Source: a phage
Length of the DNA stretch: 64,000 nt
Direction: 5' to 3' (one strand)
Sequence record: PZ154896.1
Shown: piece by piece, positions 1,666-50,016 of the stretch
Layout of the letters: every line of letters starts with the position of its first letter
Numbering within the stretch: the stretch's first letter is position 1
The notes under the pieces: model-generated
Seen by the model: the letters and a program-made list of their open reading frames with translations, nothing else
Database searches by the model: none
What the model was told of the DNA's origin: nothing
Made by a program: the position numbers and the translations under genes

Positions 1666-1809
1666 CTAGTTAAAGCATTCATACTTTGCTTGTAGTCCAA
1701 TCATAATCCATCCGATTACAAGTGTTGGAATCATTACTGGAGCCGTTAAGCTCCAGTAGATAGTCATGATAAGCATCAATAGTAAAAGTCCTATTGTTAT
1801 TGCTTTCAT
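1666..1809 (-). CDS. small hydrophobic membrane peptide (47 aa)
   Basis: ATG at 1807-1809 overlaps stop of upstream gene (ATGA). Product MKAITIGLLLLMLIMTIYWSLTAPVMIPTLVIGW is almost entirely transmembrane. Below ORF-track size cutoff. Confidence 0.35.
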   Translation of the reverse strand: MKAITIGLLLLMLIMTIYWSLTAPVMIPTLVIGWIMIGLQAKYECFN

Positions 1810-2441
1810 TGTTCGCCTCGTAACATGGCACCTAGTGCACCACCAGGGTGGAACTTAAGGAAGTCATTAGAGGTAAATCCACGCTCAGACGAAAGGTTGA
1901 TAGCAAACGTATCGATAAGCGCTAACAACAATGTAGTGGACATAGTCGGAGCCAGAGAATTCTCATCAACCTCTACTGCGATGCCTGTACAGAAAGAGTA
2001 ATCAAAAAGGGCTTCATTTTCTTGTGGAATGTCTGGGTTACAATGCAACAGAATCTGTTTGACGTTCGGACGAATCATTTTAAGATGCTTAGCCACGCCT
2101 ATCATTTCTTCAGTTTTACCAGAACGACTAATATGAATCAACACATCATTAGGCGCAATGAATCCTGCATCACCGTGAGAATAATGCCCGGTGTTCAAGT
2201 ACATACTCGGGATACCGAGTGAAGCAAATGTCTCAGAAGCTTTAGTTGCAATATTAGCATTCTTACCAACACCTGTAATAATTACTCGGCTTTCATAATT
2301 ACTAAGTCCGGGGCGTCGAAGAGTTTCTAGAATAGCATTATAACGAGCAGGGTTTTGACTAATTACTTTGGCCATAGCGGCCAAAGAAGAAGCTTGTTTT
2401 ATGATTGCGTCAATAGCGATAGTAATAGGAGTAGTTTTCAT
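1806..2441 (-). CDS. SIS-domain sugar-phosphate isomerase (KdsD/GmhA-like)
   Basis: 211 aa; VIITGVGKNANIATKASETFASLG matches the SIS phosphosugar-binding GxGKS motif. Confidence 0.7.
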   Translation of the reverse strand: MKTTPITIAIDAIIKQASSLAAMAKVISQNPARYNAILETLRRPGLSNYESRVIITGVGKNANIATKASETFASLGIPSMYLNTGHYSHGDAGFIAPNDVLIHISRSGKTEEMIGVAKHLKMIRPNVKQILLHCNPDIPQENEALFDYSFCTGIAVEVDENSLAPTMSTTLLLALIDTFAINLSSERGFTSNDFLKFHPGGALGAMLRGEQ

Positions 2442-2481: not shown

Positions 2482-5193
2482 TCAAAAATCGAACATATCG
2501 AACAGAGATGCTTTCTTCTCGTAATCGAGTTTCGCTGCTGATGTGAATCCTTCAAGTGGTTTAATAAATGTCTTCTCAAGGAGAACAGTGTAGTCCATCC
2601 AATGAAGTACGTCGTCTTTAATTAAATCTGTGATTTCAGTACCAGAAGGCCATGCGATACATTTATCACCGAATGGGTTTCCTTCACGTAAAGGCAGAAC
2701 ATATACTTTTTCACCTTCTACAACTTGCGGTGCATCGATATTACCTTTGATAGCCCGGTTATACGTCAGAATTCCACGAATATGGAACGGGCATTTGGGA
2801 CCAGGGAATCCACCTACATCATATTTAGCAATGTTATTCGCAGAAGATACCGACGCGATGCTAATATAATTCAATTGACGGAATTCTTTTTCAAACTCTT
2901 TAAAATATTCTTGTAATGATTCTTCACCTTCTTGAAGCATACGACGAATACATTCTTTAAGAGCTTTCTGTACTGCTTTAGGAGTCGAAGATTTCTGAGT
3001 CTCTAGACCCATGATTTTGAGTTTAGGCTCAGCGTAACGAGTACCTTCCATATCCCACACGTTTAATGCATAACGTTTCTTACCAGTCCAGAATCCACCA
3101 ATACCTTTAGAACCGAGTGGAGGCCCAGCGATAGCTTCTCGGTCCATGAACATTAAGTGTTGTTTATTGTTCATGTATTCACACATTTCACGGAAACCTC
3201 TATCAATAGCTGGTTCCATACGTTCACGTGCAAACTTATCTAAGAAGTCTACCCAATGGTTGGTATCACGGAATTTAGATTCACCAACCTTATCGATAAT
3301 TTTATCAGCAGATACGTAAATAGAGTCTGTATCACCATAAAGAACGAAAGCTTCACCTTCTGTACCACAAACTTCATTCAGATATTCATTAACTTTACGT
3401 TCAATCCACTGTAAAGCCATTTGCCCGAATGTTGTGATTGCAGTAGCATTACGCAAATCATAATAACGAAACCAAACGTTGCCAAGTGCACCATAAAGTG
3501 AGTTGATAAGCAATTTACGGTTAATTTGGGCAGTCATACCTGCAACTTCAGTACGTTGAGCTCTAAACAACATTTCATTAAGAGATTTAGCAGACAACTT
3601 TTTAATCTTTTCTTTAATCTCATCGCTGAAGTCGAAACGATAATCAACATCTAATGGTTCGTCAACAGAAAGATTAGGATTATGCAATGCCTCTTTAATT
3701 ATTTCGCCATTACGTTGAGCCGCAAGCATATAACCTTTATGTTCTTTACGTTGATTAAAGACCTTAGTGATTTCAGTTGGAACTACACCATCACGATCTT
3801 TATAATACATCATGCCGTTAGGAGAACAACTGTACACATCAGAAGGACGTTCAGCAACAGCGTTAATATAATCATGCAATGGAGCTACTTTAAACGTTCC
3901 TGCTATTGTTTCTGGGCTAATATTCACTTGGCGAATAATACTTGGATACAGAGATGTAAGGTCGAAACTCATTACATATTTGTATCGATTTGGAATAGGT
4001 TCCTTAACAAAAGCGCCGGGATAAGGTTGAACCGGGTGAGAACGACCTTGTGGAATCACCTTGTTCTGCTCTTTAAGGCTATTAAAAATAATAGCATCCC
4101 AAGTTTTAATTGGACTGAACACAGATTGAATCTGTATCTTAGCATAATAACCCATGTCCAAACTCAAGTTGATGAACTGACGCTTAGCATCAATTTGCAA
4201 TACACGATACACGTCGATAATGTTATAAGAAATATATCGTTGGTGATTGCTTTCACGAAGCTTAGAAATAGGGCCGTCATATTTCAGTTTACCAACGTTC
4301 AATTCAAATTCTGAAATGTAATCCAGAGAATATGACGGTTGATTGGTAAAAGAGAATTTTTTGTAAAGGTCAATGTAATCAAGAACAGAGATACCGAACA
4401 ATGTAATGATTTCACGAGAACCATACATGTTTTCAATAACTTTAACACGAGTTTTACGATGTGGTGATAAACGTTTCGCAGTAGATTCACCAAAAATATT
4501 CTTGATTCGGTTATACACATACGGAATATCAAATGACTCAACGTTCCATCCAGTCAAAATGACAGGAGTTTTCTGTTGCCAGAAGTTGAGATATTCCATC
4601 AACAATTCTTTTTCGTTATTGAACGGCATATAAATGATTTTATCGATAATTTCGGATGGAACTTCATCACCGCCTTGTTCTTGAAGCTTAGCAGCGATTT
4701 CAATAGACCATTCTTCTACATTACCATATGGAGAATTCAATAGATCAAATACGTAGAACCTGTCGTCAATTGAGTCATAATGGGTGATAGCATCAATCGG
4801 ATGTTTTGCTTGTGACGGCTCAGGGAACCCATCCGGAGATGTTACTTCGATGTCGAAGTTAGCCACACGAATTTTTGTATGGTCGTATTTGATTTCATAG
4901 TTATAAGTGTCAGACAAATACGCCAATTTGAAATCGTCCATGCCAAGTGCTTCAAGTCCGATATCTTCCATGCGTTTAATCCATTGGGAGGCATCACGCA
5001 TATTGGCGAACAACTTACGAGTACACGGCTTACCGTAGATATCGAAATATTTCGTAGCCTGACTTTCTGGACAATGAGCAAACAGTGATGGTTTATATTC
5101 TACTTCACGAGTACGTTCACGGCCGTTAGAATCGATGTAACGTTCAAAAATTGAATCACCAATCTGTTCAACCGTTAAGTAAAATTCTTTCAT
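2482..5193 (-). CDS. 43: DNA polymerase gp43 (family B, with 3'-5' exonuclease)
   Basis: 903 aa; near-identical over its length to the T4/RB69 gp43 sequence as I recall it (MKEFYLTVEQIGDSIFERYIDSNG..., YGDTDS polymerase motif). Confidence 0.97.
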   Translation of the reverse strand: MKEFYLTVEQIGDSIFERYIDSNGRERTREVEYKPSLFAHCPESQATKYFDIYGKPCTRKLFANMRDASQWIKRMEDIGLEALGMDDFKLAYLSDTYNYEIKYDHTKIRVANFDIEVTSPDGFPEPSQAKHPIDAITHYDSIDDRFYVFDLLNSPYGNVEEWSIEIAAKLQEQGGDEVPSEIIDKIIYMPFNNEKELLMEYLNFWQQKTPVILTGWNVESFDIPYVYNRIKNIFGESTAKRLSPHRKTRVKVIENMYGSREIITLFGISVLDYIDLYKKFSFTNQPSYSLDYISEFELNVGKLKYDGPISKLRESNHQRYISYNIIDVYRVLQIDAKRQFINLSLDMGYYAKIQIQSVFSPIKTWDAIIFNSLKEQNKVIPQGRSHPVQPYPGAFVKEPIPNRYKYVMSFDLTSLYPSIIRQVNISPETIAGTFKVAPLHDYINAVAERPSDVYSCSPNGMMYYKDRDGVVPTEITKVFNQRKEHKGYMLAAQRNGEIIKEALHNPNLSVDEPLDVDYRFDFSDEIKEKIKKLSAKSLNEMLFRAQRTEVAGMTAQINRKLLINSLYGALGNVWFRYYDLRNATAITTFGQMALQWIERKVNEYLNEVCGTEGEAFVLYGDTDSIYVSADKIIDKVGESKFRDTNHWVDFLDKFARERMEPAIDRGFREMCEYMNNKQHLMFMDREAIAGPPLGSKGIGGFWTGKKRYALNVWDMEGTRYAEPKLKIMGLETQKSSTPKAVQKALKECIRRMLQEGEESLQEYFKEFEKEFRQLNYISIASVSSANNIAKYDVGGFPGPKCPFHIRGILTYNRAIKGNIDAPQVVEGEKVYVLPLREGNPFGDKCIAWPSGTEITDLIKDDVLHWMDYTVLLEKTFIKPLEGFTSAAKLDYEKKASLFDMFDF

Positions 5194-8406: not shown

Positions 8407-8607
8407 TTATTCGTAGAAGTCGGTAACTGTCCATGCGGAATTGCGATTAGACATTATTTTATTATACTCATCTTTAAAAGCAGATTTGAGCATTTGTTCA
8501 GTAACAATATGTTCTTCACCTGAAAACGTATTGGTCAAAACATATTTTTTAATTTCAGGGACAACGAGAAGATGTTGGCCGGTTGAATACTCCATGTTGT
8601 TCTCCAT
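8407..8607 (-). CDS. hypothetical protein (T4 45.2 position)
   Basis: 66-aa ORF between rpbA and 46. Confidence 0.5.
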   Translation of the reverse strand: MENNMEYSTGQHLLVVPEIKKYVLTNTFSGEEHIVTEQMLKSAFKDEYNKIMSNRNSAWTVTDFYE

Positions 8608-8649
8608 TTAATTTGATGTGGTCATTATAACCACATCGTGTTAAAGCGT

Positions 8650-10338
8650 TTATGAAACAGTCATTACAGTAAATCGTCCAACTTTGCTCATTTGAAGATG
8701 TTGTCCATAAGCTTGTGGGTCATGGTCTCTGTGACTAATTATAAACACGTTTGCATCGGTTAGAGAGTTAAGAATTGTTGAAATAGCTTTAATACCTTCA
8801 GAATCAGTCGCGGAATCCATGACTTCGTCCATAATTAATGTATTGATTCTAACACCAGAGACCTTTTCAGCAATATCTCGCCATGTAAACAACAATGCGA
8901 TATCGATACGCGCTTTTTCGCCTTGACTAAATGAAGCATAACTGAACTCTTCACGGCCACGTGATTTTATAGATTCATTGAATTCTTCATCAATAGAAAA
9001 CACGTAATCAGCTTCCATGATTTTAAGATAATGGTTAATCTGCTTGTTGAACAGAGGCACATATTTTTTAATGATAGCACCTTTAATACCGGAATCTTTT
9101 AACATATCTGTGATAATACCACGATGGTATTTTTCAAGAACGATATCTGATTTTGTTTTAATGATTTTATCAAGTTCTTTTTGAAGCAAAGCTATCTCAT
9201 CAGCGTGGTCGATAAATTCCGCCGAGGCTTGTTCTATTGCAGCTTTAACTTTCTTAGCTTTATCAATAGTGGCAATCATTGCTTGTTTCTTGGTACGAAT
9301 ATCAGATGCAAGGTCCTGTTTAGTCTTAACATTAGCTCTATATTCGTCCACTAGGACACTCAGATTATCTCTGTGGCATGTAAGTTGCTCGAATGAGTGA
9401 TTACATTCATGAAGCTTATCGGTAATCTTAGTGACAATAGGATCACCCTGGTGCAACTGTGATGCACAAGTAGGACATGTACCACCATCATGATACATCT
9501 TAATAACTTTGTTATACGAGTCAATTTTAGATTTAATCAAGAATGCTTCTTGTCCTATCTTGTTGAATGCCTCAGTAGGGTCTTCGTCAAGAACGATATT
9601 AAGTAGACGCTCATTAGCTTCTTCGATTTCTGCTTTTAATGAACGAGCTTCTTTGGCTAGGTCGTCATACATGTTCTGTAGACGCGCTACGTTATCACCA
9701 GATAATTTCTTTTGACGTTCGATATTCTCGTTATAAATCTTAATTTGTTGGATAATACCATCTTTCTTGGCATCGAGAACTTGACCCTGGGAATTAAGTT
9801 CTCGAACTTGAGACTTATTGATTTTATCCATTTCGGCGAGTGTGCCGACTTCTAAAAGGTCTTCGACAAGTTTTCTACGAGCAGGGGTGCTAAGAGCCAT
9901 GAAAGGGGTATACCCTGCCGTCCCAAGCACAACGATTTGTTTAAAAGACGCGTATGACATTCCGATGCTACGTTCAAATTCTTCTTGGAAGTCACGACTG
10001 CTGGCAGATTCATCAAGACGAACACCGTCAACGGAGATTTCGAAAATATTGGGCTTTTGGCCACGTTTAATGAAGTATTTTTTACCATCGAATTCCATCC
10101 AAAGCTCAACTAAGAGCTCTTTCTTGTTCGTGCTATTAATGATTTGCCCTTTCTTAACATCACGAAATGGTTTACCGAAAAGTCCGAAAGTAATGGCTTC
10201 TAACATCGTAGATTTACCACCACCATTTTTACCTGTGATTAAGGTCTTTTGGACTTTATCTAATTGGATATCGATAAAATTTTGCCCAACAGACATTATA
10301 TTTTTATAACGAACACGATTTAATTTAAATGATTTCAT
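8650..10338 (-). CDS. 46: recombination endonuclease subunit gp46 (Rad50/SbcC-like ATPase)
   Basis: 562 aa; Walker A GKNGGGKST, central coiled coil, CPTC zinc hook, C-terminal signature/Walker B; collinear with T4 gp46. Confidence 0.95.
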   Translation of the reverse strand: MKSFKLNRVRYKNIMSVGQNFIDIQLDKVQKTLITGKNGGGKSTMLEAITFGLFGKPFRDVKKGQIINSTNKKELLVELWMEFDGKKYFIKRGQKPNIFEISVDGVRLDESASSRDFQEEFERSIGMSYASFKQIVVLGTAGYTPFMALSTPARRKLVEDLLEVGTLAEMDKINKSQVRELNSQGQVLDAKKDGIIQQIKIYNENIERQKKLSGDNVARLQNMYDDLAKEARSLKAEIEEANERLLNIVLDEDPTEAFNKIGQEAFLIKSKIDSYNKVIKMYHDGGTCPTCASQLHQGDPIVTKITDKLHECNHSFEQLTCHRDNLSVLVDEYRANVKTKQDLASDIRTKKQAMIATIDKAKKVKAAIEQASAEFIDHADEIALLQKELDKIIKTKSDIVLEKYHRGIITDMLKDSGIKGAIIKKYVPLFNKQINHYLKIMEADYVFSIDEEFNESIKSRGREEFSYASFSQGEKARIDIALLFTWRDIAEKVSGVRINTLIMDEVMDSATDSEGIKAISTILNSLTDANVFIISHRDHDPQAYGQHLQMSKVGRFTVMTVS

Positions 10339-15697: not shown

Positions 15698-16019
15698 AAT
15701 CTTCTATGATATCAGAGTCATATCCTAATGAAATCAAGGACTTTTTAAACTCTGCAATATTCTTTTGTTTCTTATCATTTAAAAATATGACAGGATAACG
15801 AATATTAAGTGAAGTGAATCCTGCACGTTTAGCAAGAGATACGATTAAAGGACGGTCATATTCAATCTTACCATTATTAGTGAGGACTTTATAAAATGTA
15901 TAAGGAGCATTGAGCTCCTTTAAAAGTTTTGTAACAGTATAACATCCCGGACAACGTCCTACTTCTTCAGGGATGCCATAAATTTCAATCTTGTTCTTTA
16001 AGTTCGAGTTTTGTTCCAC
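15696..16019 (-). CDS. nrdH: glutaredoxin/thioredoxin-fold protein (NrdH-like)
   Basis: KIEIYGIPEEVGRCPGCY has a CxxC redox motif; sits upstream of nrdG/nrdD. Start uncertain (GTG at 16017-16019 proposed; ORF track extends to 16148 in the frame that overlaps the next gene). Confidence 0.5.
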   Translation of the reverse strand: MEQNSNLKNKIEIYGIPEEVGRCPGCYTVTKLLKELNAPYTFYKVLTNNGKIEYDRPLIVSLAKRAGFTSLNIRYPVIFLNDKKQKNIAEFKKSLISLGYDSDIIED

Positions 16020-16302
16020 GAGAAATAATTCCTTGGTAAGCCCAATAAGGAGGATTAACAGAATCCTCACCAGAGTTTTCTTCAGGAAAATAAACCTGGA
16101 TAACAAATCCGGATGCATCAAAGGTAAAATAAACCGTAGGTAATTCACCTAACAATTCGGCATGAGCATTAATTTCTTCGAGATCTCGTTCACGCCCAGC
16201 CCAAAAACTAGGATTTAGACTACATTCATAGAAATAATAGTCATTACCGAACATATCAAAACCTTTCCAACTCTCTACCACATACTGCTCAAAACTAATC
16301 AT
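15985..16302 (-). CDS. hypothetical protein
   Basis: 105-aa acidic ORF. Confidence 0.5.
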   Translation of the reverse strand: MISFEQYVVESWKGFDMFGNDYYFYECSLNPSFWAGRERDLEEINAHAELLGELPTVYFTFDASGFVIQVYFPEENSGEDSVNPPYWAYQGIISRGTKLELKEQD

Positions 16303-34291: not shown

Positions 34292-34337
34292 AACATTTTA
34301 AAACATCTTCAGACCCTTCTATAATCAATTTAGCCAT
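34113..34337 (-). CDS. hypothetical protein (overlapping frame)
   Basis: 74-aa ORF overlapping the previous ORF by about 180 nt; one of the two may be mis-called. Confidence 0.3.
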   Translation of the reverse strand: MAKLIIEGSEDVLKCFAAWFGCSGEQSFIEAFRTGDITGKYPSTDITVRGYDINEPIQLVEYDLATDEEIPYVD

Positions 34338-34699
34338 TATAGACTCTCAGTAAAGGTACGAGCTATAACGTCGCGCTGTTGTTCTGGAGTCAGAGAGTTA
34401 AAGCGAACTGCATAACCAGATACACGGATGGTCAGCTGCGGATATTTTTCAGGATGCTTAACTGCATCTTCCAGAGTTTCACGACGCAGAACGTTAACGT
34501 TCAGGTGTTGACCACCTTCAATTTTAACTTTAGGTTGATGTTCAATTTCAATTTCACGGGCATTCAAACCGTAGAAAATTTCCGGGTCTACAATAGCGTC
34601 TTCTTTAAAAGTCTTAGAGACGATAATCCGGGCTTGAGTACCATCTTCAAAATAAATAGTGCCTTTATGTGCACCTTCAAGAATTTGATATGCTTTCAT
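34337..34699 (-). CDS. autonomous glycyl-radical cofactor (GrcA/YfiD-like)
   Basis: 120 aa; C-terminal [25 protein letters not shown] is the pyruvate-formate-lyase glycyl-radical signature. Confidence 0.75.
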
Positions 34700-35723: not shown

Positions 35724-36053
35724 TTATACTCTAGGCTTTTGAGCTTGTTTGGTATTGGATTCCCATGCGGCTTTGGTAATTTTGTTAGCGGCATAACCAA
35801 AGGCATTAGATAGAACACCTTTAGAGTTGAATACATCCAATCCAATAAGTACACCTGCTGTGTTAAATTTAGGAGCAAAGTACGCATTAGTTTTAGAAAG
35901 AGCTTTTTTCAATTCAGGGTCTTGAACCAAGCCATCAAAAACGCCTTTACCATTTACTTTATATGTTACTTTGGGATTTTTAGCTTCTTCGATAGCAGCT
36001 TTCTGTTCCGCAGATAGTGTAACTTCAGTAATAAATTCTTGATAGGTTTTCAT
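35724..36053 (-). CDS. internal (capsid-targeted) protein
   Basis: Start set at MKTYQEFITE (ATG 36051-36053), the capsid-targeting sequence shared by T4 internal proteins. Confidence 0.7.
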   Translation of the reverse strand: MKTYQEFITEVTLSAEQKAAIEEAKNPKVTYKVNGKGVFDGLVQDPELKKALSKTNAYFAPKFNTAGVLIGLDVFNSKGVLSNAFGYAANKITKAAWESNTKQAQKPRV

Positions 36054-36166
36054 TTTGTTCTCTCTAGGTTTAGACCATTCCATGGCCCATGAATTGTCCA
36101 TTTTCCGTATTTACCACTCCAAGTAATTATGAATATACTATCACAATTCTAGGAGAAAGTAAACTG

Positions 36167-36469
36167 TTATTTACCTTTAATTACTTTAGCTGCTTCGATA
36201 GCCGCTTGCTGAAGGTCGTCCATAGACATACCGAATTTAGAAGCAAAGTTATCAATTTTCTTTTCGACCGCATTCAAAGGCTTGGCCTGTTTACCTTCAT
36301 TAGCGCCTGGAAGAGCGAGAATACGCTCTTTGTCAATATAAAGGCTTACAAGTTTCTTACGGTCTTTATCGGACAAATCATGAAATGAATGGGCCTTTTT
36401 ATTTATAGCGGCTTCTAATTTACCTGCGCTCACTCGCGCTTCAGTAATAAATTCTTGATATGTTTTCAT
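36167..36469 (-). CDS. ipII: internal protein II-like
   Basis: 100 aa, N-terminal MKTYQEFITEA capsid-targeting sequence; size matches T4 IPII. Confidence 0.75.
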   Translation of the reverse strand: MKTYQEFITEARVSAGKLEAAINKKAHSFHDLSDKDRKKLVSLYIDKERILALPGANEGKQAKPLNAVEKKIDNFASKFGMSMDDLQQAAIEAAKVIKGK

Positions 36470-36510
36470 ATGTTTCCTTTAAATGTAAATAGGCCTAAAT
36501 ATAGGCCTTA

Positions 36511-37089
36511 TTAATTACCACGGGCTGCATTAGCAACGGCATAAGCGTACTGAACATTAGCGTCTTTAAACGTACCTTTAGAGGTATCTATTTCTGCCTT
36601 AAAGCCGCCTTTAGCCATAACATCGGCAAATTCTTTACGGAAAGCCATTGCATCAAGACCTTTCCATGATGATTTGTGCTTGGCGAATTCAAGACCAGCG
36701 TAGTTGACAGCCTTAGCTAATTTATTATCAATAACCCATTTACCGGCTTTAGGCACAAACTTCGGTCCTTTTTGTTTAGAGAACAGTTTTAAATTCCAGC
36801 GACGAAGATCACTGTCGGCTTTAACAAAAGCTGCATCTAAGTTACTAGCAACAACATCTTCAATATGAGCAAATTTAAGTCCGTCAACTTCAATATTTAG
36901 ATCGTTACGCCAGCGAAGTCCTTCCCAAGCGAAGGCTTTAAAATCAGAAGCTTTTGTGGCTAGATATCGTTCAAGTGGAGCAGTTTTAGGGTCAAAGCCG
37001 TTTCCGCCACGATAAGTCCACTCGTCCTTATTAATGCCTTGAGCTTTTCCTGCAAAGGCCTCGGCGATAAATTCTTTATATGTTTTCAT
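36511..37089 (-). CDS. ipIII: internal protein III-like
   Basis: 192 aa, N-terminal MKTYKEFIAEA; size matches T4 IPIII. Confidence 0.75.
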   Translation of the reverse strand: MKTYKEFIAEAFAGKAQGINKDEWTYRGGNGFDPKTAPLERYLATKASDFKAFAWEGLRWRNDLNIEVDGLKFAHIEDVVASNLDAAFVKADSDLRRWNLKLFSKQKGPKFVPKAGKWVIDNKLAKAVNYAGLEFAKHKSSWKGLDAMAFRKEFADVMAKGGFKAEIDTSKGTFKDANVQYAYAVANAARGN

Positions 37090-37110
37090 TTTTGTTTCCT
37101 TGTTTGTTTT

Positions 37111-37150
37111 GATAGAGTAATTATACCATATTAATACTTAAGCGTAAACT
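37111..37150 (-). promoter_or_regulatory. early promoter cassette (family A variant)
   Basis: GTTTAC -35 and TATAAT -10 in a degenerate GATAG palindrome. Confidence 0.45.
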
Positions 37151-37152
37151 GT

Positions 37153-37413
37153 TTAAGCTTTACCGCCGGAAATAATTCCGAAGTTGTTAAAATCGTATCC
37201 AATATCGTCAACATCTACTTTAGGGCTTGCTACAACATAAGCAATTTCACTACGTTTTGCATAGGTGTTGATTTCTTTACCATCGCCACCTAAGAAAAAA
37301 TACCCATTACGTTTTAATGAGCCAAAGTCTTCCGCATCACCAATGAAAGCTTTAACTTTAAATTTAGGACCTTTGGCATCTGCTTCAGCGATAAATTCTT
37401 GATACATTTTCAT
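37153..37413 (-). CDS. internal protein (capsid-targeting-sequence-containing)
   Basis: 86 aa, N-terminal MKMYQEFIAEA. Confidence 0.65.
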   Translation of the reverse strand: MKMYQEFIAEADAKGPKFKVKAFIGDAEDFGSLKRNGYFFLGGDGKEINTYAKRSEIAYVVASPKVDVDDIGYDFNNFGIISGGKA

Positions 37414-37419
37414 TTTTCC

Positions 37420-37833
37420 TTAGTAAATTGATTTACCATAGTATTTGTACCAAGTAGGGCGCTGAGCAATTTTTTCATCTAAGCGTGCTTGACTTATCGC
37501 AATGGACGCTTCGGACGGGACATAATTATTACGAAATTCGGCAGGGATGTCGGAAATATCTTGGACAGTTGTGTCCTTGATTTTGAAACCACGTTTCAAG
37601 CATTCAGCGATTAACTCGATTTGACGTAAACGTAAAAATTCGAGTTTGTCGTAAAAGAATGTTACATGACCTGTGCCTAAGATAAATGTTGGAGAGATTT
37701 TAAAATCCTTTACACGTTTACCGTTTTGAACATGTTTACGGACTGCACCAAATACGCGTGGTAATTCACGATACTCTGCCATAAGATGTTGGTCGGTCAG
37801 TTCAGAAACAAGTGTTAAATTGATACGAGTCAT
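37420..37833 (-). CDS. denV: endonuclease V (pyrimidine-dimer DNA glycosylase) DenV
   Basis: About 90% identical to T4 endo V from memory; start set to MTRINLTLV (ATG 37831-37833). Confidence 0.92.
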
Positions 37834-37849
37834 AATTTCCTCCAAGTAG

Positions 37850-37890
37850 TTGATGAATGTATAGTATCAAAGTCCTTGGAGGAAGTAAAC
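37850..37890 (-). promoter_or_regulatory. early promoter cassette (GTTTAC-17-TATACA-like)
   Basis: Minus-sense GTTTACttcctccaaggactttgaTACTATACAT. Confidence 0.4.
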
Positions 37891-37891
37891 A

Positions 37892-38173
37892 CTATTTTTC
37901 TGAAGCGCCTGAAATATATTTTTCAAGACGTTGTTTCATCAGCGAGCCGTTCTTAGCGATTTCTTCCGGTTTATCGCACATACGTAACAAGGCTTCAAGC
38001 TTAACGATATCACTGGTGCGCTCAAATTTGCGAGTATCTATCTTACTAGCAAGTTCAGAAATACGTGCTAATAGACTTTCAGCTTCAACCAAAGCTGCAC
38101 CTAGCTTAGTTGCAAATGTGTCAGTAGCTTCGTTAAGAATAGATTCTGATAAAAATTCACTATATGTTTTCAT
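37892..38173 (-). CDS. internal protein (capsid-targeting-sequence-containing)
   Basis: Start set at [10 protein letters not shown] (ATG 38171-38173), ATGA-coupled to lysozyme gene. Confidence 0.6.
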
Positions 38174-38658
38174 ATATACGCTTTCCAAGTTCCTGTTTTA
38201 AATGTTGAGATTACGCGTTTCGCGCGATTAGGTGTCTGACGATACCATTTAGATTGGGCTAGATTTACTGCCGCTTCGTCCCAACGTTTCTGTTGAAGCA
38301 TACGAAGAGAATTAGTAAAACCAGCGACGCCTGCTACACCCATTTGGAAGACCATATTGACCAATGCACATCGACGAACTGCATCTAAAGAATCATATAC
38401 CGGTTTAAGTTTAGCATTACCCAAGATTCCGCGTACGGCTTTATCAACGTCTTCATTAAATAACTTTTCGGCCTCATCAAGGGTAATTGTACCGTTGCAT
38501 TTACGTCCGATCATTCTGTCAAGTTCAGCTTTAGCTACGGCTAAAGACGGGTTCTTTGTTACTAAATGGCCTATGCCAATCGTCCAAAAGCCTTCAGTGT
38601 CTTTGTATAAAGTCAGTCTAAGACCTTCGTCATTACGAAGCATTTCAAATATATTCAT
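38170..38658 (-). CDS. e: lysozyme (endolysin) e
   Basis: About 85% identical to T4 lysozyme from memory ([27 protein letters not shown]); start set at ATG 38656-38658. Confidence 0.95.
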
Positions 38659-38692
38659 AATACCTCCCACATTTATAGGAGGTATTTATTAC

Positions 38693-44794: not shown

Positions 44795-45021
44795 TATTTT
44801 TTAATCAAGTTGACATAAAATTCTGCATCTTCAGGGTGCATGCCTTCGCAGTATTCTTCAACCATGAACTTCTTAACAGCTTCATAAGGGCCGCTCAGAT
44901 TAAGTTCAGTTGTCCAGAACTTGGAATCTTGGACTGAATCGATACGAACTTCAGGGTGACGGTTGCGAATAACTTCTTCAGTGTATTCATAATCAACGAC
45001 ATCAATACTAACTTTAGCCAT
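44794..45021 (-). CDS. hypothetical acidic protein
   Basis: 75-aa ORF. Confidence 0.5.
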   Translation of the reverse strand: MAKVSIDVVDYEYTEEVIRNRHPEVRIDSVQDSKFWTTELNLSGPYEAVKKFMVEEYCEGMHPEDAEFYVNLIKK

Positions 45022-45040
45022 TTTGTGTTCCTCTTGTTTT

Positions 45041-45079
45041 GATAGGACTACTATACCATAAACTTACTTAGATGTAAAT
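45041..45079 (-). promoter_or_regulatory. early promoter cassette (family A, truncated palindrome)
   Basis: GATAGGACTACTATACC plus TTTACA-like -35. Confidence 0.4.
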
Positions 45080-45232
45080 TATTTCAACGTCACCTTTAGC
45101 TGCTTTATAACCTTCAGCCCAAGATACAACAGAGTTTTTATCCGAGGATTCAAATTCAGGCATTGGGCTTTCACCAATATTCACACAGTATGTTTCTTCA
45201 TTTTCATCGAACCAAATAATTAAAGTAGTCAT
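45068..45232 (-). CDS. small hypothetical protein (54 aa)
   Basis: Start moved to ATG 45230-45232 (MTTLIIWFDENEE), downstream of the promoter cassette. Confidence 0.4.
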   Translation of the reverse strand: MTTLIIWFDENEETYCVNIGESPMPEFESSDKNSVVSWAEGYKAAKGDVEIIYI

Positions 45233-45795: not shown

Positions 45796-45814
45796 AATAT
45801 TCTCCCCATGTTTT

Positions 45815-45853
45815 GATAGGTCTATAGTAACACATCTAGGGAAGAAGTAAACA
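45815..45853 (-). promoter_or_regulatory. early promoter cassette (family B)
   Basis: GTTTAC-17-TACTATAGACCTATC. Confidence 0.5.
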
Positions 45854-45904
45854 ACTTTTTCAGTAAGTTATAGACCCCCTAATGGGGACCGAAGTCCCCA
45901 TTCT

Positions 45905-46531
45905 TTACTTACGAGTTTTTGCATACTGAGCAGCGTCAGCAGCCAAACGACCTGCCTGACGAAGTTTTTCTTTAATCGCATCGTGAAGTGGTTGAGTATA
46001 CTTCAAACCTTCGATAGTCAAATAAAGACGATAAAGGTCTGGGGTATCAAGGTTGTTGATATGTTGGCCATTACGAAGACTGTTGAATTCACGAACGAGT
46101 GAAGATGTATCGGATTCAATATCGCGAACAAGCGAAGATAGTTGTTTATATTTTTTTTCCAGGCTAGAAGTATCAAACTTAAGAGCAGGAGCTTTAGGAG
46201 TTGCTTTTACTTCCGGCTTAGGCTCAGGTTTTGCTATTGCTTTAGGGGTCGCAGGTTTAGGAACGGTAGGAGCAGGTTTTACTTTAGGCGAACCCGATTT
46301 AGCAGAAACACCGCCACTAACAATATCTTTGAACGCTTTAGAAGCTCTGTAATATTCTTTTTGGCTGGAAGTGTCGATACCATACATGGCTTGAACGTTT
46401 TTGAAAAACTCTGTACTAGTTTTTGTACCAGAAATAGCATCGTAAGCAGCTTGCCATTTCTCTTTTGTCATACGTACACCGGCTTCGGTGATTACTTCCG
46501 TTTCGGCTAAAAATTCATTAAAAGTATACAT
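45905..46531 (-). CDS. capsid-targeting-sequence-like protein (internal-protein candidate)
   Basis: 208 aa; N-terminal MYTFNEFLAETE resembles the MKTYQEFIAEA targeting sequence; Pro/Lys/Ala-rich central repeat; late promoter upstream. Confidence 0.55.
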   Translation of the reverse strand: MYTFNEFLAETEVITEAGVRMTKEKWQAAYDAISGTKTSTEFFKNVQAMYGIDTSSQKEYYRASKAFKDIVSGGVSAKSGSPKVKPAPTVPKPATPKAIAKPEPKPEVKATPKAPALKFDTSSLEKKYKQLSSLVRDIESDTSSLVREFNSLRNGQHINNLDTPDLYRLYLTIEGLKYTQPLHDAIKEKLRQAGRLAADAAQYAKTRK

Positions 46532-46566
46532 TGATGGTCCTTAGAAAGTAGGTTTATTGTTTACTA

Positions 46567-46574
46567 TATTTATA
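46567..46574 (-). promoter_or_regulatory. late promoter TATAAATA
   Basis: Exact TATAAATA on minus strand about 36 nt upstream of ATG 46531. Confidence 0.45.
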
Positions 46575-46604
46575 CAAAAAAGCCCCAACCTTTCGGAAGG
46601 GGCT
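46575..46604 (-). terminator. rho-independent terminator (GAAA loop)
   Basis: AGCCCC-UUCC-GAAA-GGUU-GGGGCU followed by UUUUUU on minus strand, downstream of the tRNA region. Confidence 0.55.
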
Positions 46605-46647
46605 ATATACCTTGTCGGGGTTTCCACCTACTAAGGCAAGTGTTTGT

Positions 46648-46739
46648 ACGAAACGCCGGGATTCGAACCCGGTTATTAAGCAGTTGACGCTACTCAATAT
46701 TTTTAAAAGGCCATATCTCGACCATATCCGAACGTTCCG
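46648..46739 (-). other. tRNA-like element / probable tRNA pseudogene
   Basis: Canonical T-arm CCGGG-UUCGAAU-CCCGG and 7-bp acceptor pairing, but no canonical D or anticodon arm in the 92-nt span. Confidence 0.3.
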
Positions 46740-46907
46740 TCAAAAACGCTACTCGGCTTACGGCAAAGATATTTCCTCGAATCGATAATTCTTTGCGCCG
46801 TTTCTGCTGTGATGTAAGGGGATATTAACAAATCATAAAGATTTATTAAGACCAGTCCTTACTCAGGGAACATCAGTCCGACGACTTGCCGGTAGCGACC
46901 CGGCTTC

Positions 46908-47252
46908 TTATTTTGACATATCATCAATTTGTTCTCTACGTCTACGCCATAGATTAATTACTTCATCAACACATTCAGCATTTGGTATATGACGACAATA
47001 GTATAGTGATTCGCGTTTCTGGAACCGATGTTGTAATGGAATTTCGTTTAAAAGGTCTTTACGGTCAAAGTATTCAAAACTAGTTAACCCGGAACGGTTT
47101 TTAAGAAACTTCCAATGTCCGAATTCATTTTGAAAATAAACATAATCAGCGTGTTGATATAACGAATTAATCAACCGGTCGGAAATAACTGTATCCTGTT
47201 CATTAAAATAAAACGTTAAATCATGAACTACCAGATAAATATTACCTTTCAT
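46908..47252 (-). CDS. hypothetical protein
   Basis: Start set at ATG 47250-47252 (MKGNIYLVVHD) to avoid overlapping tRNA-Arg. Confidence 0.5.
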   Translation of the reverse strand: MKGNIYLVVHDLTFYFNEQDTVISDRLINSLYQHADYVYFQNEFGHWKFLKNRSGLTSFEYFDRKDLLNEIPLQHRFQKRESLYYCRHIPNAECVDEVINLWRRRREQIDDMSK

Positions 47253-47270
47253 ATTTTCCTCACTTAAAGT

Positions 47271-47347
<77 letters not shown>

Positions 47348-47350
47348 GAT

Positions 47351-47425
47351 TGGTGACCCTGGCTGGTTTCGATCCAGCTACCTATCAGTTATGAGCTGAC
47401 AGCTCTCCCATTGAGCTACAGGGCC
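47351..47425 (-). tRNA. tRNA-Met (anticodon CAU; could be Ile2 if lysidine-modified), CCA encoded
   Basis: Manual fold: acceptor GGCCCUG/CAGGGUC, D-stem GCUC/GAGC, anticodon loop CUCAUAA, T-arm GCUGG-AUCGAAA-CCAGC; 3 nt from tRNA-Arg. Confidence 0.8.
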
Positions 47426-47504
47426 TTAATAACTTTCTATTATGAAAGGCACTTTAGAGCACCTTTGGTAATAGAGGGTATGAATTAATAATAACACATA
47501 ATTC

Positions 47505-48020
47505 TTAAAGCAAATCAATCATTTTAACAGTCGGCAAAACGATTTCTTCTTCAATATAAGCAAATTCAACACATTCAACTACACGCAAGAAATCATAATC
47601 ATAATATTCAGAAGCATGGCCAAGAATATCAATGAGACCTTCTGATACTAAATATCCATTCTCATGGAACAGGTCAAATACACGCGATTCGTCTTCTTCA
47701 GATTTATTACCAAGGTCGACTTCAATATCAAAGACCTTTTTAATGAATTCTGGATAAAGCTGGTCTGAGAACAATCCTTCAACCAAGTATTCATAGATTA
47801 AAAGCGAACAATCACTGAATAGTGTATTACCACAGTAACGTTCAGCTTTAGTGCTGGAATGACGGCTCTTAAATTTCTTCAAAAGATATTTAAACTGTTG
47901 GAGCTCATGCTCTTCTACACCAAATAATGTTTTGGTTTTATAGTTGTCGCCGTCATTTTCCCAAGTAGTGACATCAATTACGTAACCTTTAGGAATTGTA
48001 CTGCCTAAACAAATATTCAT
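47505..48020 (-). CDS. hypothetical acidic protein
   Basis: 171-aa ORF. Confidence 0.5.
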   Translation of the reverse strand: MNICLGSTIPKGYVIDVTTWENDGDNYKTKTLFGVEEHELQQFKYLLKKFKSRHSSTKAERYCGNTLFSDCSLLIYEYLVEGLFSDQLYPEFIKKVFDIEVDLGNKSEEDESRVFDLFHENGYLVSEGLIDILGHASEYYDYDFLRVVECVEFAYIEEEIVLPTVKMIDLL

Positions 48021-48024
48021 TTAC

Positions 48025-48315
48025 TCACCGTACCATATTAATGTAATTATATTCAATGCAACATAATTTCAAAGGATTCTTGAAAATATCATATTCAAGA
48101 GGACCTTTTTCTGTTTCAATAAAGAAATCAAAGTTCACACTATTAAATTTGCGGTCTTCCCAAAGTAATTTAACCTGTGAAGATGAACGGTCGACGTAAA
48201 CCTTTTCAACTTCAAAGTGGGTCAAAATACCATAGTAATCGACTAGTGCTTTAGCTGCAGCTCGGTCGCTTTCATATCCATTCTCAACGGATTTTACCTT
48301 AGCATAAAGAATCAT
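48025..48315 (-). CDS. hypothetical protein
   Basis: 96-aa ORF. Confidence 0.5.
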   Translation of the reverse strand: MILYAKVKSVENGYESDRAAAKALVDYYGILTHFEVEKVYVDRSSSQVKLLWEDRKFNSVNFDFFIETEKGPLEYDIFKNPLKLCCIEYNYINMVR

Positions 48316-48317
48316 TA

Positions 48318-48701
48318 TTAACCTTTATCAACAATAGTATGTGTATGGGCATTTACGATTTGCCACCAGTCAAAACTATCGCCAAATCGTTTTGATTTAT
48401 TGTCTTCAATAATTTGGCGTAATTCATCTTCAGTAGCGGCTTTCGCGATTAAATCAGCATATCCACCACGAGGATAATAATTATCACCTGCAAAAAGTAA
48501 AAAGTTTGGTTTAATATTATTAAACTCTTCAAGAGTAATAACTGTTCCACCAGGTTGAACAATATCTACATAACTATATCCTAATTTTTGAGCAGCATCT
48601 ACTGCTTCAAGCAGGGTATCATGAGCCCATCCAATTTGGCAATCTGGCTTTTCAGATGGATTAGCCTGATAATCCGCGTACACTTTATACATTCTATTCA
48701 C
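48318..48701 (-). CDS. hypothetical protein
   Basis: 127-aa ORF. Confidence 0.5.
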   Translation of the reverse strand: MNRMYKVYADYQANPSEKPDCQIGWAHDTLLEAVDAAQKLGYSYVDIVQPGGTVITLEEFNNIKPNFLLFAGDNYYPRGGYADLIAKAATEDELRQIIEDNKSKRFGDSFDWWQIVNAHTHTIVDKG

Positions 48702-48879
48702 CTTTAGAAATTTTATCCATAACGATAGCGATTAAACCGATTAGAAATGCTACTACCAATGAGATAGAATTTTCTGTTGTTGTCAGTAGTCCACAAATGA
48801 ATCCTACAAACATCGAAAAACTAAAAGCCATTGAAGCAATTACTACAGCAACATTACGAATCAGTTCAGCGCGTTTCAT
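48694..48879 (-). CDS. small membrane protein
   Basis: 61 aa, two hydrophobic helices. Confidence 0.45.
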   Translation of the reverse strand: MKRAELIRNVAVVIASMAFSFSMFVGFICGLLTTTENSISLVVAFLIGLIAIVMDKISKGE

Positions 48880-48898
48880 TTTATTCTCCTCAGTAGTT

Positions 48899-48938
48899 GA
48901 TAGGGTAATAGTATCACTACCCTATCTAAAAGTAAACG
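48899..48938 (-). promoter_or_regulatory. early promoter cassette (family A variant)
   Basis: GATAGGGTA...TACCCTATC palindrome around -10; GTTTAC -35. Confidence 0.45.
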
Positions 48939-48948
48939 GTTTTATAAA

Positions 48949-49257
48949 CTATTTTATTCCACGTGATGCAATCGTATTCTGCCGTTTAACGCCAGTTTGT
49001 TTAAAGTCATGACTGTCGATTTGATCGGTACGAGCAACTCCGAACGATGATTTAATCTTAGCTTTAGATCCTTTAGTTATAGAAATAAACATCTCAGAGG
49101 ACCCTTTCTTAAAGTCTGATGCAGATACTTCAACGCCGTTCTTAGCAAGTGACCTCAGAATTGCATCTGCGTACTCATCATCAAGACTCGCTTGAGTATT
49201 AATAACGAATGTCTTTGGCGCAGCTGCTTCACAGATAAATTCTTTAAATGTTTTCAT
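48949..49257 (-). CDS. internal protein I-like (capsid-targeting-sequence-containing)
   Basis: 102 aa; N-terminal MKTFKEFICEAAA; located next to 57B as ipI is in T4. Confidence 0.6.
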   Translation of the reverse strand: MKTFKEFICEAAAPKTFVINTQASLDDEYADAILRSLAKNGVEVSASDFKKGSSEMFISITKGSKAKIKSSFGVARTDQIDSHDFKQTGVKRQNTIASRGIK

Positions 49258-49269
49258 TTTATTTTCCTA

Positions 49270-49308
49270 ATTAATTTTGATAGGACTACTATAACATAGT
49301 CCTATCAG
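49270..49308 (-). promoter_or_regulatory. early promoter cassette (family A, perfect 10-bp inverted repeat)
   Basis: GATAGGACTAcTATAACATAGTCCTATC plus GTTTACA; minus-sense GTTTACA-17-TATAGT. Confidence 0.5.
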
Positions 49309-49330
49309 CATGTAAACTGTTTTGTGAAAA

Positions 49331-50016
<686 letters not shown>

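Follow-up and report, generated by a model that had tools for sequence, protein, structure and literature searches.

In the published view, the internal proteins (IPs) of phage T4 form an injected anti-defence arsenal (PMC3012670; PMC12373910). Each of the three T4 proteins Ip1, Ip2 and Ip3 has its own target among the GmrSD type IV restriction enzymes, which it inhibits (Silas 2025, PMC12373910): the IPI of T4 and RB69 (IPI*) is an inhibitor of GmrSD-CT596, IPII is an injected inhibitor of GmrSD-ECOR21/BrxU, and IPIII is one of GmrS1+GmrSD2-ECOR17. DNA of RB69 is likewise attacked by GmrSD, and RB69 IPI protects it (PMC6024577). Ip4 to Ip10 gave no reproducible inhibition when set against 15 GmrSD groups (Silas et al., PMC12373910). 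The work of Mullaney & Black (1996), as summarised in PMC9026906, assigns targeting by the N-terminal capsid-targeting sequence (CTS) to an aromatic residue at position 4 and Phe at position 7, and processing by gp21 to Ile/Leu at position 8 and Glu at position 10. Both gp21, the prohead protease, and gp22, of the scaffolding core, are encoded by core genes of T4-related phages (PMC9026906).

Seven genes opening with a capsid-targeting sequence

The window analyzed here, a 64,000-nucleotide (64 kb) stretch of phage DNA (PZ154896.1), comes from an RB69-like Mosigvirus and is approximately 98% identical to phage phi25-307; the genes for gp21 and gp22 are located outside it. A six-frame scan of the window with a regular expression for the CTS (M-x-x-[YFW]-x-[ED]-F-[ILVM]-x-E) returned seven matches, all on the minus strand and each opening an ORF, compared with a mean of 0.007 and a maximum of 1 in 300 mononucleotide shuffles. 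The scan thus recovers the MKTYQEFIAEA-like N-termini that the initial annotation had noticed in seven ORFs, and the sizes given there, 86-208 aa, are correct. A looser scan added a single match, at 15985-16302 (MISFEQYVVES), which belongs to phrog_2749 (function not known), lies outside the IP loci and is probably a chance hit.

Five of the seven genes lie between e and vs.8. This main array is bounded upstream by e (endolysin; 38170-38658, minus strand; Pfam Phage_lysozyme, 7.5e-14) and contains one gene that does not encode an internal protein, denV (endonuclease V, a pyrimidine-dimer glycosylase; 37420-37833, minus strand; Pfam Pyr_excise, 3.3e-14; phrog_1183, 1.5e-62). The interleaving with denV and e had been described beforehand and is confirmed, as is a gene order unlike that of T4: the window reads e-IP93-denV-IP86-ipIII-ipII-IP109, whereas T4 reads e-ipIII-ipII-denV (the numbers in IP93 and the like are lengths in residues). 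The polymorphic IP loci of T-even phages were reportedly described by Repoila et al. in 1994. Those loci, the e/denV region and the 57B-tRNA region, hold CTS genes here, and the gene for IP208 stands at a third site.

Each leader carries the determinants of targeting and processing, with Y at position 4 in five leaders and F in two, and with F at position 7, I or L at position 8 and Glu (never Asp) at position 10 in all seven. The predicted gp21 sites are ITE↓V, ITE↓A, IAE↓A, IAE↓A, LSE↓S, ICE↓A and LAE↓T (the arrow marks the cut), and additional sites are predicted in IP93 (LNE↓A) and IP208 (ITE↓A). An AGGA-like RBS is found 5-9 nt 5' of the start in six of the seven genes, and the leader is the true N-terminus of a translatable gene, less clearly so for IP109, whose RBS is weaker and which could also start at an ATG further upstream. 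The mature bodies (76-192 aa) are mutually unrelated, as similarity between IPs in an all-against-all BLASTP comparison centres on the N-terminal leader and is weak elsewhere. PHROG families described as 'internal head/virion protein' cover five of the seven proteins, and two already stand as 'internal head protein' in RefSeq. None of the seven gave an informative domain match in Pfam, and PDB sequence searches with the five orphans (Ip7, IP86, IP93, IP109 and IP208) returned nothing below E=0.001.

A survey of 36 denV loci (denV +/-5 kb, taken from those large phage contigs whose denV is closest) revealed one to five CTS ORFs at 29 of them, and the bodies of the 84 CTS proteins divide into 18 families. 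Lys2 is kept in 66 of 68 leaders and Thr3 in 63 of 68, neither residue being required by the search pattern. Moreover, Thr3 is encoded by all four of its codons among these leaders, and its conservation in spite of that points to selection acting on the protein.

The ipII and ipIII orthologues and the five orphans

Two genes in the array are full-length orthologues of T4 genes. The ipIII orthologue (36511-37089, minus strand; 192 aa; MKTYKEFIAE↓A) shares 92% amino acid identity with T4 IPIII over its full length (phrog_5341, 1.8e-117), and the ipII orthologue (36167-36469, minus strand; 100 aa; MKTYQEFITE↓A) shares 93% with T4 IPII (phrog_7857, 4.5e-55); the exact sequence of the latter carries the name ipII or IpII in public records. 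At the DNA level, identity to T4 is 89% for ipIII and 94% for ipII, against 71-80% in the flanks. The two share their leaders with the T4 proteins and, as in T4, are adjacent, ipIII before ipII; unlike in T4, where the pair lies upstream of denV, it is found here downstream of denV and in a Mosigvirus backbone. RB69 also differs from the window in having neither gene. By analogy with T4, the two products would be expected to block a BrxU-type GmrSD and the GmrS1/GmrSD2 doublet, respectively.

Three orphans share the e/denV region with them. IP93 (37892-38173, minus strand; 93 aa) has the predicted leader site LSE↓S and the second one, LNE↓A, at residues 13-15; it belongs to phrog_3499, an 'internal head protein' family (E=1.2e-46), and its exact sequence carries that name in many Mosigvirus records. 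The IP93 start overlaps the e stop (ATGA), and the gene appears to be translationally coupled to e. IP86 (37153-37413, minus strand; 86 aa; MKMYQEFIAE↓A; mature pI 6.4; phrog_2667/35655) starts 6 nt past the denV stop and is 94% identical to RB69 ORF125, an 'internal head protein'. A shared PHROG hit had raised the possibility that IP86 is a homologue of Ip7, which was dropped, as its hhalign similarity to the Ip7 profile is essentially that of the leader only. IP109 (35724-36053, minus strand; 109 aa; MKTYQEFITE↓V; pI 9.7) is basic and is always 'hypothetical' in public records; it falls in phrog_3966 (1.7e-32), a family common to IP109, Ip10 of phage Pol, RB69 ORF124 and phi25-307 gp085. Its mechanically called ORF reaches an in-frame upstream ATG at 36101 (125 aa), from which the RefSeq homologue starts. 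Translation more probably begins at the CTS Met at 36053, since RB69 annotates 109 aa and RB69 homology breaks at 36060.

Ip7 (IP102; 48949-49257, minus strand; 102 aa; MKTFKEFICE↓A; phrog_2667, 3.6e-41) sits immediately downstream of 57B (49331-49786), in the classical ipI locus. Proteins deposited as 'Ip7 protein' or 'internal head protein 7' match it at 85-95% identity, among them the 'Ip7 protein' of phages vB_EclM_AS6 (91%) and WG01 (86%). No IPI orthologue was found in the window, where tblastn with T4 and RB69 IPI matches the leader only, and Ip7 itself is ruled out as one, IPI belonging to phrog_4363 and Ip7 to phrog_2667. Ip7 holds the locus of IPI and has the same type of leader, and the logic of a packaged inhibitor would be common to both, but neither its mature sequence nor its modelled fold showed similarity to IPI*. 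Its AlphaFold2 model (mean pLDDT 63, approximately 80 in the core) has a beta-alpha-beta-beta-alpha arrangement followed by a conserved basic disordered tail; a Foldseek search against PDB gave generic ACT/RRM-like beta-alpha-beta matches only (E at least 0.037), and IPI* was not retrieved.

IP208 (45905-46531, minus strand; 208 aa; pI 9.8) is basic as well, and has a divergent CTS, MYTFNEFLAE↓T, with the second site, ITE↓A, at residues 14-17, of which E16 and A17 are invariant in the family. The family (phrog_2280, 'unknown function') keeps the leader even at approximately 25-45% body identity, most members starting MKTYNEFLNES, and is labelled hypothetical in all records seen, never as an Ip. 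The locus lies upstream of tRNA genes, and RB69 has a CTS ORF (ORF149) at the same site. A profile search over 1.84 billion representatives yielded only 13 clusters, each belonging to the same narrow phage family, and connected the protein to no known domain. In its AlphaFold2 model (mean pLDDT 72), two helical domains are joined by a disordered Pro/Lys/Ala-rich linker, for which Foldseek against PDB and BFVD retrieved generic helical hairpins or its own family only. Structure prediction, one of the checks proposed in the initial annotation, thus gave models for IP208 and Ip7, but the fold searches gave no functional clue.

The composition of the mature proteins bears on what they may do. Five of the seven are strongly basic (pI 9.6-9.8, net charge +5 to +14), like T4 IPs, whereas IP86 and IP93 are near-neutral. 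The orphans could then be generic head-core or DNA-associated 'filler' that neutralises charge or assists DNA condensation or ejection without a host target, as the basic majority, the long disordered linker of IP208 and the conserved tail of Ip7 would suggest, together with the approximately 1000 IP molecules embedded in DNA in each T4 head (PMC3012670) and the failure of ip4-10 to show a reproducible GmrSD target. We consider this unlikely: all three T4 IPs examined have a specific nuclease target, an arms race is a better fit to 18 body families with rapid cassette turnover, and IP86 and IP93 are not basic. Inhibitors of host nucleases remain our preferred reading of the class.

Promoters, hairpins and recombination junctions

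The CTS genes of the main array are accompanied by T4-type early promoters on the minus strand, namely TTTACG-N17-TATAAT (37120-37148) upstream of ipIII and TTTACT-N17-TACTAT (37861-37889) upstream of denV and IP86. A promoter-like repeat, GTTTAC...TAGTAT (36134-36164, minus strand), lies upstream of IP109 and belongs with the 37861-37889 element to one repeat family, D6 (81% identity). A hairpin, AGGCCTATATTTAGGCCT (36491-36508, minus strand), separates ipIII from ipII. Upstream of Ip7, a PeSL-type stem-loop, ATAGGACTA...TAGTCCTAT (49280-49305, minus strand), is found in the early promoter TTTACA-N17-TATAGT. Late-promoter-like sequences, TATAAATG and AATAAATA, are located upstream of e at 38670-38690. 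A perfect T4 late promoter box is found near IP208 only, and the other CTS genes are behind early-type promoters or dependent on read-through, which tells against the internal-protein reading; packaging calls for late transcription. This box, TATAAATA (46567-46574, minus strand), stands 36 nt upstream of the IP208 start and is preceded by a terminator hairpin (46576-46602). Since TATAAATA is no more frequent in the 64 kb window than chance would have it (9 copies observed, 7.9 expected), it is the position of the box, and not its frequency, that is suggestive. One further copy, inside ipII (36400-36407), comes from an Ile codon that T4 lacks and is probably a coincidence.

Where cassettes have been gained or lost in comparison with phi25-307 and RB69, the breaks fall within the CTS-coding 5' ends. 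The clearest case is a junction of 53 nt at 37061-37113, seen in alignments with both phages, that spans the ipIII CTS codons and the RBS region. In phi25-307 it aligns to the 5' ends of ipIII and Ip10 alike and bounds an indel of one cassette (approximately 340 nt), and in the comparison with RB69, where ipII and ipIII stand in place of ORF124, the replaced stretch has its right-hand junction here too. The consensus of PeSL elements (promoter-early stem-loops) for T4-like phages (PMC4122927) offers a comparison. Like the modules that PeSL elements shuffle in T4-like phages, the cassettes of the window are flanked by early promoters of the form TTTACN-N17-TAYNAT, and copies of early-promoter or PeSL-type elements recur around the IP locus and in RB69. 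The clearest junction in the window, however, is in the CTS-coding sequence itself, and not in the promoter element only.

Junctions in CTS-coding and promoter segments mean that leaders could be inherited passively, and some of them, especially those of IP208 and IP109, might be by-products of the recombinational shuffling of 5' segments, on proteins that are not packaged. Degraded leaders do occur in RB69, where ORF123 has Ala10 and ORF127 a compensated frameshift over codons 5-12, and RefSeq starts the IP109 homologue at the upstream ATG. Yet ORF127 still has Y4, F7 and an LNE↓A site, Thr3 is conserved despite synonymous turnover, and distant members of the IP208 family have kept the leader, mostly in its canonical form, all of which makes a passive origin very improbable in our view.

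Proposed role and relation to known systems

Overall, we are confident, short of certainty, that the seven are the ip genes of a T4-like Mosigvirus, whose products would be targeted by the CTS, cut by gp21 and injected, and would likely act as inhibitors of host nucleases. In the mechanism that we propose, the CTS of approximately 10 residues would dock each protein on the scaffolding core of the assembling prohead, and gp21 would cut after Glu10 (I/L-x-E↓) or, in IP93 and IP208, at the second I/L-x-E↓A site. The freed and mostly basic mature protein would remain in the head with the DNA, enter the host with it, and act ahead of any phage gene expression; most likely, each protein would inhibit one particular host nuclease stoichiometrically. 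Ip7, IP86, IP93, IP109 and IP208 would be orphan members of this class, and the repertoire would be assembled and reshuffled by homologous recombination, with the conserved 5' ends that encode the CTS and the flanking promoter elements as the sites of exchange. We infer packaging, cleavage and injection of the seven proteins, as well as an anti-defence role of the orphans, by analogy with T4; the literature on RB69-like and JS98-like phages yielded no usable virion proteomics for Mosigvirus IPs.

The suggestion of a diversified arsenal of injected anti-defence effectors, made in the initial annotation, is supported by the presence of the determinants in all seven leaders and of two T4 orthologues, and matches the published view. 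Extended to the five non-T4 proteins, the anti-defence role is an extrapolation. They might, like Alt, act on host processes other than DNA defence, such as takeover of transcription or translation, the membrane or abortive infection: T4 packages Alt too, a host-modifying enzyme processed by gp21, and ip4-10 are without GmrSD targets. This seems quite unlikely to us, as these are small proteins (76-192 aa when mature) in which Pfam, PDB and fold searches detected no enzymatic domain, and every characterised member of the class inhibits type IV restriction.

The phage carries the arabinose-5-phosphate isomerase of RB69, and its DNA is therefore probably arabinosylated rather than glucosylated. 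The published assays of ip4-10 were done on DNA that is not arabinosylated. The seven-member palette brings together T4-type ipII and ipIII and five orphans, without ipI, in a probably arabinosylating RB69-like phage. It is conceivable, although we hold it only tentatively and would sooner bet against it, that IP208 and IP109 are truly packaged and injected proteins missed by annotation, and that the five orphans inhibit defences so far unpaired with an inhibitor. If so, IP208 would represent a third locus for IPs, served by a late promoter of its own, and candidate targets would include type IV enzymes recognising arabinosylated cytosines, or systems other than GmrSD. Screens against unpaired defence systems have ready candidates in the orphans, above all in the unannotated families of IP208 and IP109. 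As injected proteins act before phage expression, they decide whether a T4-like phage survives the modification-dependent restriction of a strain, in therapeutic as in environmental settings, and the IP palette could predict host range.

The concept of an IP arsenal is established in the literature and not new, and the array described here leaves current understanding unchanged; what we add is confined to the annotation of IP109 and IP208 as probable internal proteins and to the setting of probably arabinosylated DNA. The array follows the same pattern as Ip4-Ip10 of T-even phages, in which a conserved leader and 5' regulatory region precede variable bodies. By database names, IP102 corresponds to Ip7 and IP109 falls in the PHROG of Ip10, whereas IP208 (phrog_2280), at its third locus, lies outside this named set as far as records show. 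Further afield, and compared by literature descriptions, phage P1 Dar and the ejection proteins of SPN3US are unrelated in sequence and use other incorporation signals, but they too are packaged in the head, injected and directed against restriction, those of SPN3US being processed by a prohead protease, as proposed here for the seven internal proteins.

Seven ORFs with a capsid-targeting leader

The leader M-(K/Y)-(T/M)-(Y/F)-x-E-F-(I/L)-x-E was found to open exactly seven ORFs of the window, all on the minus strand, when ORFs were listed and all six frames scanned for the pattern, whereas 300 shuffles of the window gave a mean of 0.007 occurrences. The initial annotation had reported seven ORFs with N-termini of the T4 capsid-targeting sequence (CTS) type and an array of them interleaved with denV (37420-37833) and e (38170-38658); both observations were borne out, with ORF positions as first given and a single start refined. 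Labelling internal-protein (IP) ORFs by length, the array comprises IP109 (35724-36053, 109 aa, leader MKTYQEFITEV), ipII (IP100; 36167-36469, 100 aa, MKTYQEFITEA), ipIII (IP192; 36511-37089, 192 aa, MKTYKEFIAEA), IP86 (37153-37413, 86 aa, MKMYQEFIAEA) and IP93 (37892-38173, 93 aa); the other two are IP208 (45905-46531, 208 aa, MYTFNEFLAET) and Ip7 (IP102; 48949-49257, 102 aa, MKTFKEFICEA). The refined start is that of IP109, whose mechanical ORF begins at an upstream ATG (36101), the CTS Met at 36053 being the likelier start. The stretch 36060-36115, which includes this in-frame ATG, is 86% identical to a portion of the 5' coding sequence of T4 vs.8, and may be a remnant from cassette insertion. 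In addition, a 105-aa ORF (15985-16302, minus strand) starting MISFEQYVVES bears a loose likeness to the CTS (F4, Y7, V8, E10); as its PHROG (phrog_2749) is of unknown function and the IP loci are distant, this is probably due to chance.

Protein identities and leader conservation

All-against-all BLASTP showed that the N-terminal leader is essentially the sole likeness among the seven proteins, their mature bodies being unrelated. The ipII and ipIII products are orthologous over their full length to T4 IPII (93%) and IPIII (92%), respectively; we refer to the remaining five as orphans. Ip7, whose gene immediately follows 57B and so occupies the T4 ipI locus, is 85-95% identical to deposited "Ip7" proteins. 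It is not orthologous to IPI: its PHROG differs, tblastn of the window with IPI returned a leader match only, and a search with its model failed to recover IPI*. The PHROGs of IP93 and IP86 bear the label "internal head protein", which RefSeq also gives their homologues in RB69 and relatives. IP109 falls in phrog_3966, alongside gp085 of Shigella phage phi25-307 and RB69 ORF124, whose cluster includes "Ip10" of phage Pol; its homologues are hypothetical in all annotations. IP208 falls in phrog_2280 (unknown function), and is hypothetical in every record examined. We add here that the IP109 and especially the IP208 families, annotated as hypothetical, carry every sequence-level hallmark of candidate internal proteins. 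Structure prediction, proposed initially as a check, yielded models for IP208 (two helical domains with a disordered Pro/Lys-rich linker between them) and Ip7 (a small beta-alpha-beta-beta-alpha core and a basic tail, conserved and with predicted disorder); fold and PDB searches gave no informative match.

In T4 IPIII experiments, according to the account of Mullaney and Black (1996) in PMC9026906, the first 10 residues are enough for packaging, targeting depends on leader residues 4 and 7 and cleavage on residues 8 and 10, and Asp10 prevents cleavage. Y/F4, F7, I/L8 and E10 are present in all seven window leaders, with A, S, V or T at residue 11. A second I/L-x-E site followed by A occurs in IP93 (residues 13-15) and IP208 (residues 14-16), resembling the situation in T4 IPI, where cleavage follows residue 19. 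The IP208 leader is the most divergent of the seven; most members of its family have the canonical start MKTYNEFLNES, with E16-A17 invariant or nearly so, and relatives at only about 25-45% body identity still have such a leader. The window together with 80 related loci yielded 68 distinct leaders, of which 66 have Lys2 and 63 have Thr3, neither being demanded by the search pattern, and all four Thr codons are in use at position 3, which indicates selection on the leader as a peptide, and not as DNA alone.

Two RB69 leaders depart from this picture (coordinates of the RB69 comparison locus, L004). In ORF127 (9923-10204), the RB69 copy of IP93 (37892-38173), one base is deleted and another inserted in compensation, so that residues 5-12 are recoded (MKTYMNFYQNLSLNE), with the first cleavage site lost and Y4, F7 and the LNE site before A kept; either a sequencing error or a genuine leader variant may be the cause. 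ORF123 (8450-8779), homologous to IP109 (35724-36053), has Ala for Glu at position 10 (FIAAV vs FITEV), which should abolish cleavage at that site by the prohead protease gp21.

Cassette turnover and expression signals

We surveyed denV +/-5 kb in 80 IMG/VR loci. Of the 36 loci with the closest denV, on large phage contigs (102-378 kb), 29 have one to five CTS ORFs on the denV strand; none was found within 5 kb of denV in the 44 more distant loci. The 84 CTS proteins of the survey represent 18 unrelated body families. Five CTS ORFs lie beside denV in the window and six in phi25-307, the RB69 total being seven or eight; the window's number is near the top of the survey range, not exceptional. 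In 1994, Repoila et al. reportedly described two IP loci as highly polymorphic, the leader and regulatory sequences being conserved and the bodies variable.

Along its entire length, the main cluster shares 98.4% identity with phi25-307, a Mosigvirus (RB69-like), and parts of it are matched by hundreds of T-even-type phage records, while region 45800-49400 best matches other Mosigvirus isolates (about 95-97%); the genome is therefore mosaic within the genus. In phi25-307, the closest relative, a further CTS cassette of Ip10 type, gp085 (4117-4431 of comparison locus L001), separates IP86 from ipIII; it is absent from the window. The flanking alignments overlap on window 37061-37113, the CTS codons and RBS region common to ipIII and gp085; on these alignments, gp085 presence or absence is a unit-length indel with the leader repeat at its bounds. 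Window 36061-37060 (ipII and the ipIII body) stands in place of the RB69 ORF124 body, with one junction around the start of IP109 and the other within the leader of ipIII. The placing of cassette junctions within leader-coding sequence is a point added here. As the ipII/ipIII module is closer to T4 DNA (94% and 89% identity) than are the flanking genes (vs 80%, denV 78%, e/nudE 71%), its sequence suggests that it was exchanged laterally with Tequatrovirus-type phages.

The ipI locus holds two cassettes in RB69 (Ip7-like ORF156 and ipI) and one in the window, copies of the same upstream element being involved. Shuffling mediated by promoter/stem-loop elements has been explicitly tied to the IP palette (PMC4122927). 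Intergenic 45019-45084 and 49250-49337 (early promoter and RBS) have at least eight distinct matches within the RB69 locus, with 75-98% identity, consistent with dispersed PeSL-type (promoter-early stem-loop) regulatory repeats. At the third locus, that of IP208, RB69 ORF149 (leader MKTYAEFLTEA) is a CTS ORF with patchy similarity to IP208; ORF149/ORF148 (L004 18429-18991) look like the two parts of a frameshifted CTS protein of 187 aa that RB14 and many Tequatroviruses have in intact form.

Regarding expression, T4-type early promoters lie upstream of denV, ipIII, IP109 and Ip7, the last holding an embedded stem-loop. The IP86 start is 6 nt past denV, the IP93 start overlaps the e stop codon (ATGA), and e is closely preceded by late-promoter-like boxes. 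A perfect TATAAATA box precedes IP208 only, at a distance of 36 nt from the start and immediately behind a terminator hairpin; we add that IP208 would be a third IP locus with its own putative late promoter. Read-through could thus plausibly give late expression of the main cluster.

DNA modification, proposed role and known systems

T4 DNA carries glucosyl-hmC. In RB69 the cytosines are arabinosylated, not glucosyl-hmC (PMC6024577; PMC13326640). A SIS-domain protein of the window (1806-2441, minus strand), adjoining DNA polymerase gene 43, is 100% identical to RB69 gp55 (arabinose-5-phosphate isomerase), so that this phage probably arabinosylates its DNA, as judged from one marker gene. The type IV enzyme GmrSD-CT596 cleaves RB69 DNA, and RB69 IPI protects (PMC6024577); type IV restriction is thus relevant to arabinosylated phages too. 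Among other background features, there are only two tRNA genes (47271-47425, minus strand; Arg-TCT and Met-CAT), the same pair as in RB69, the T4 counterpart region having eight. The vs.6 homologue (34337-34699, minus strand) resembles a glycyl-radical domain at its C-terminus, and its homologues in relatives are annotated as autonomous glycyl radical cofactor GrcA.

The GmrSD-family type IV enzyme inhibited is a different one for each of T4 Ip1, Ip2 and Ip3, with no cross-protection, while reproducible inhibition was not found for ip4-10 against 15 GmrSD groups (Silas et al. 2025, PMC12373910). In the proposed mechanism, the leader would dock each internal protein on the scaffolding core and be cut off by gp21; the mature protein would be retained in the head alongside the DNA, enter the host together with it, and neutralise one specific host nuclease ahead of phage transcription. 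This account is best supported for ipII and ipIII, for which it would follow from close T4 orthology, and is an extrapolation for Ip7, IP86, IP93, IP109 and IP208. It is possible that the orphans are generic DNA-associated filler proteins, that their leaders were inherited passively, or that they are effectors with non-defence targets, but each of these fits less well with cassette turnover, diversity, or family-wide leader conservation.

The internal-protein arsenal first suggested for these genes is supported as a reading and agrees with published T-even descriptions. Observation and interpretation are both textbook T-even biology, and the window's CTS genes occur at 95% identity or above in many sequenced Mosigvirus genomes. 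What we add is the combination of T4-type ipII and ipIII with five orphans, without ipI, in a probably arabinosylating background. Whereas RB69 has ipI beside its Ip7-like gene (L004 21389-21789), the window does not (48889-48939), which predicts that this phage would be sensitive to CT596-type GmrSD, unless another IP covers it.
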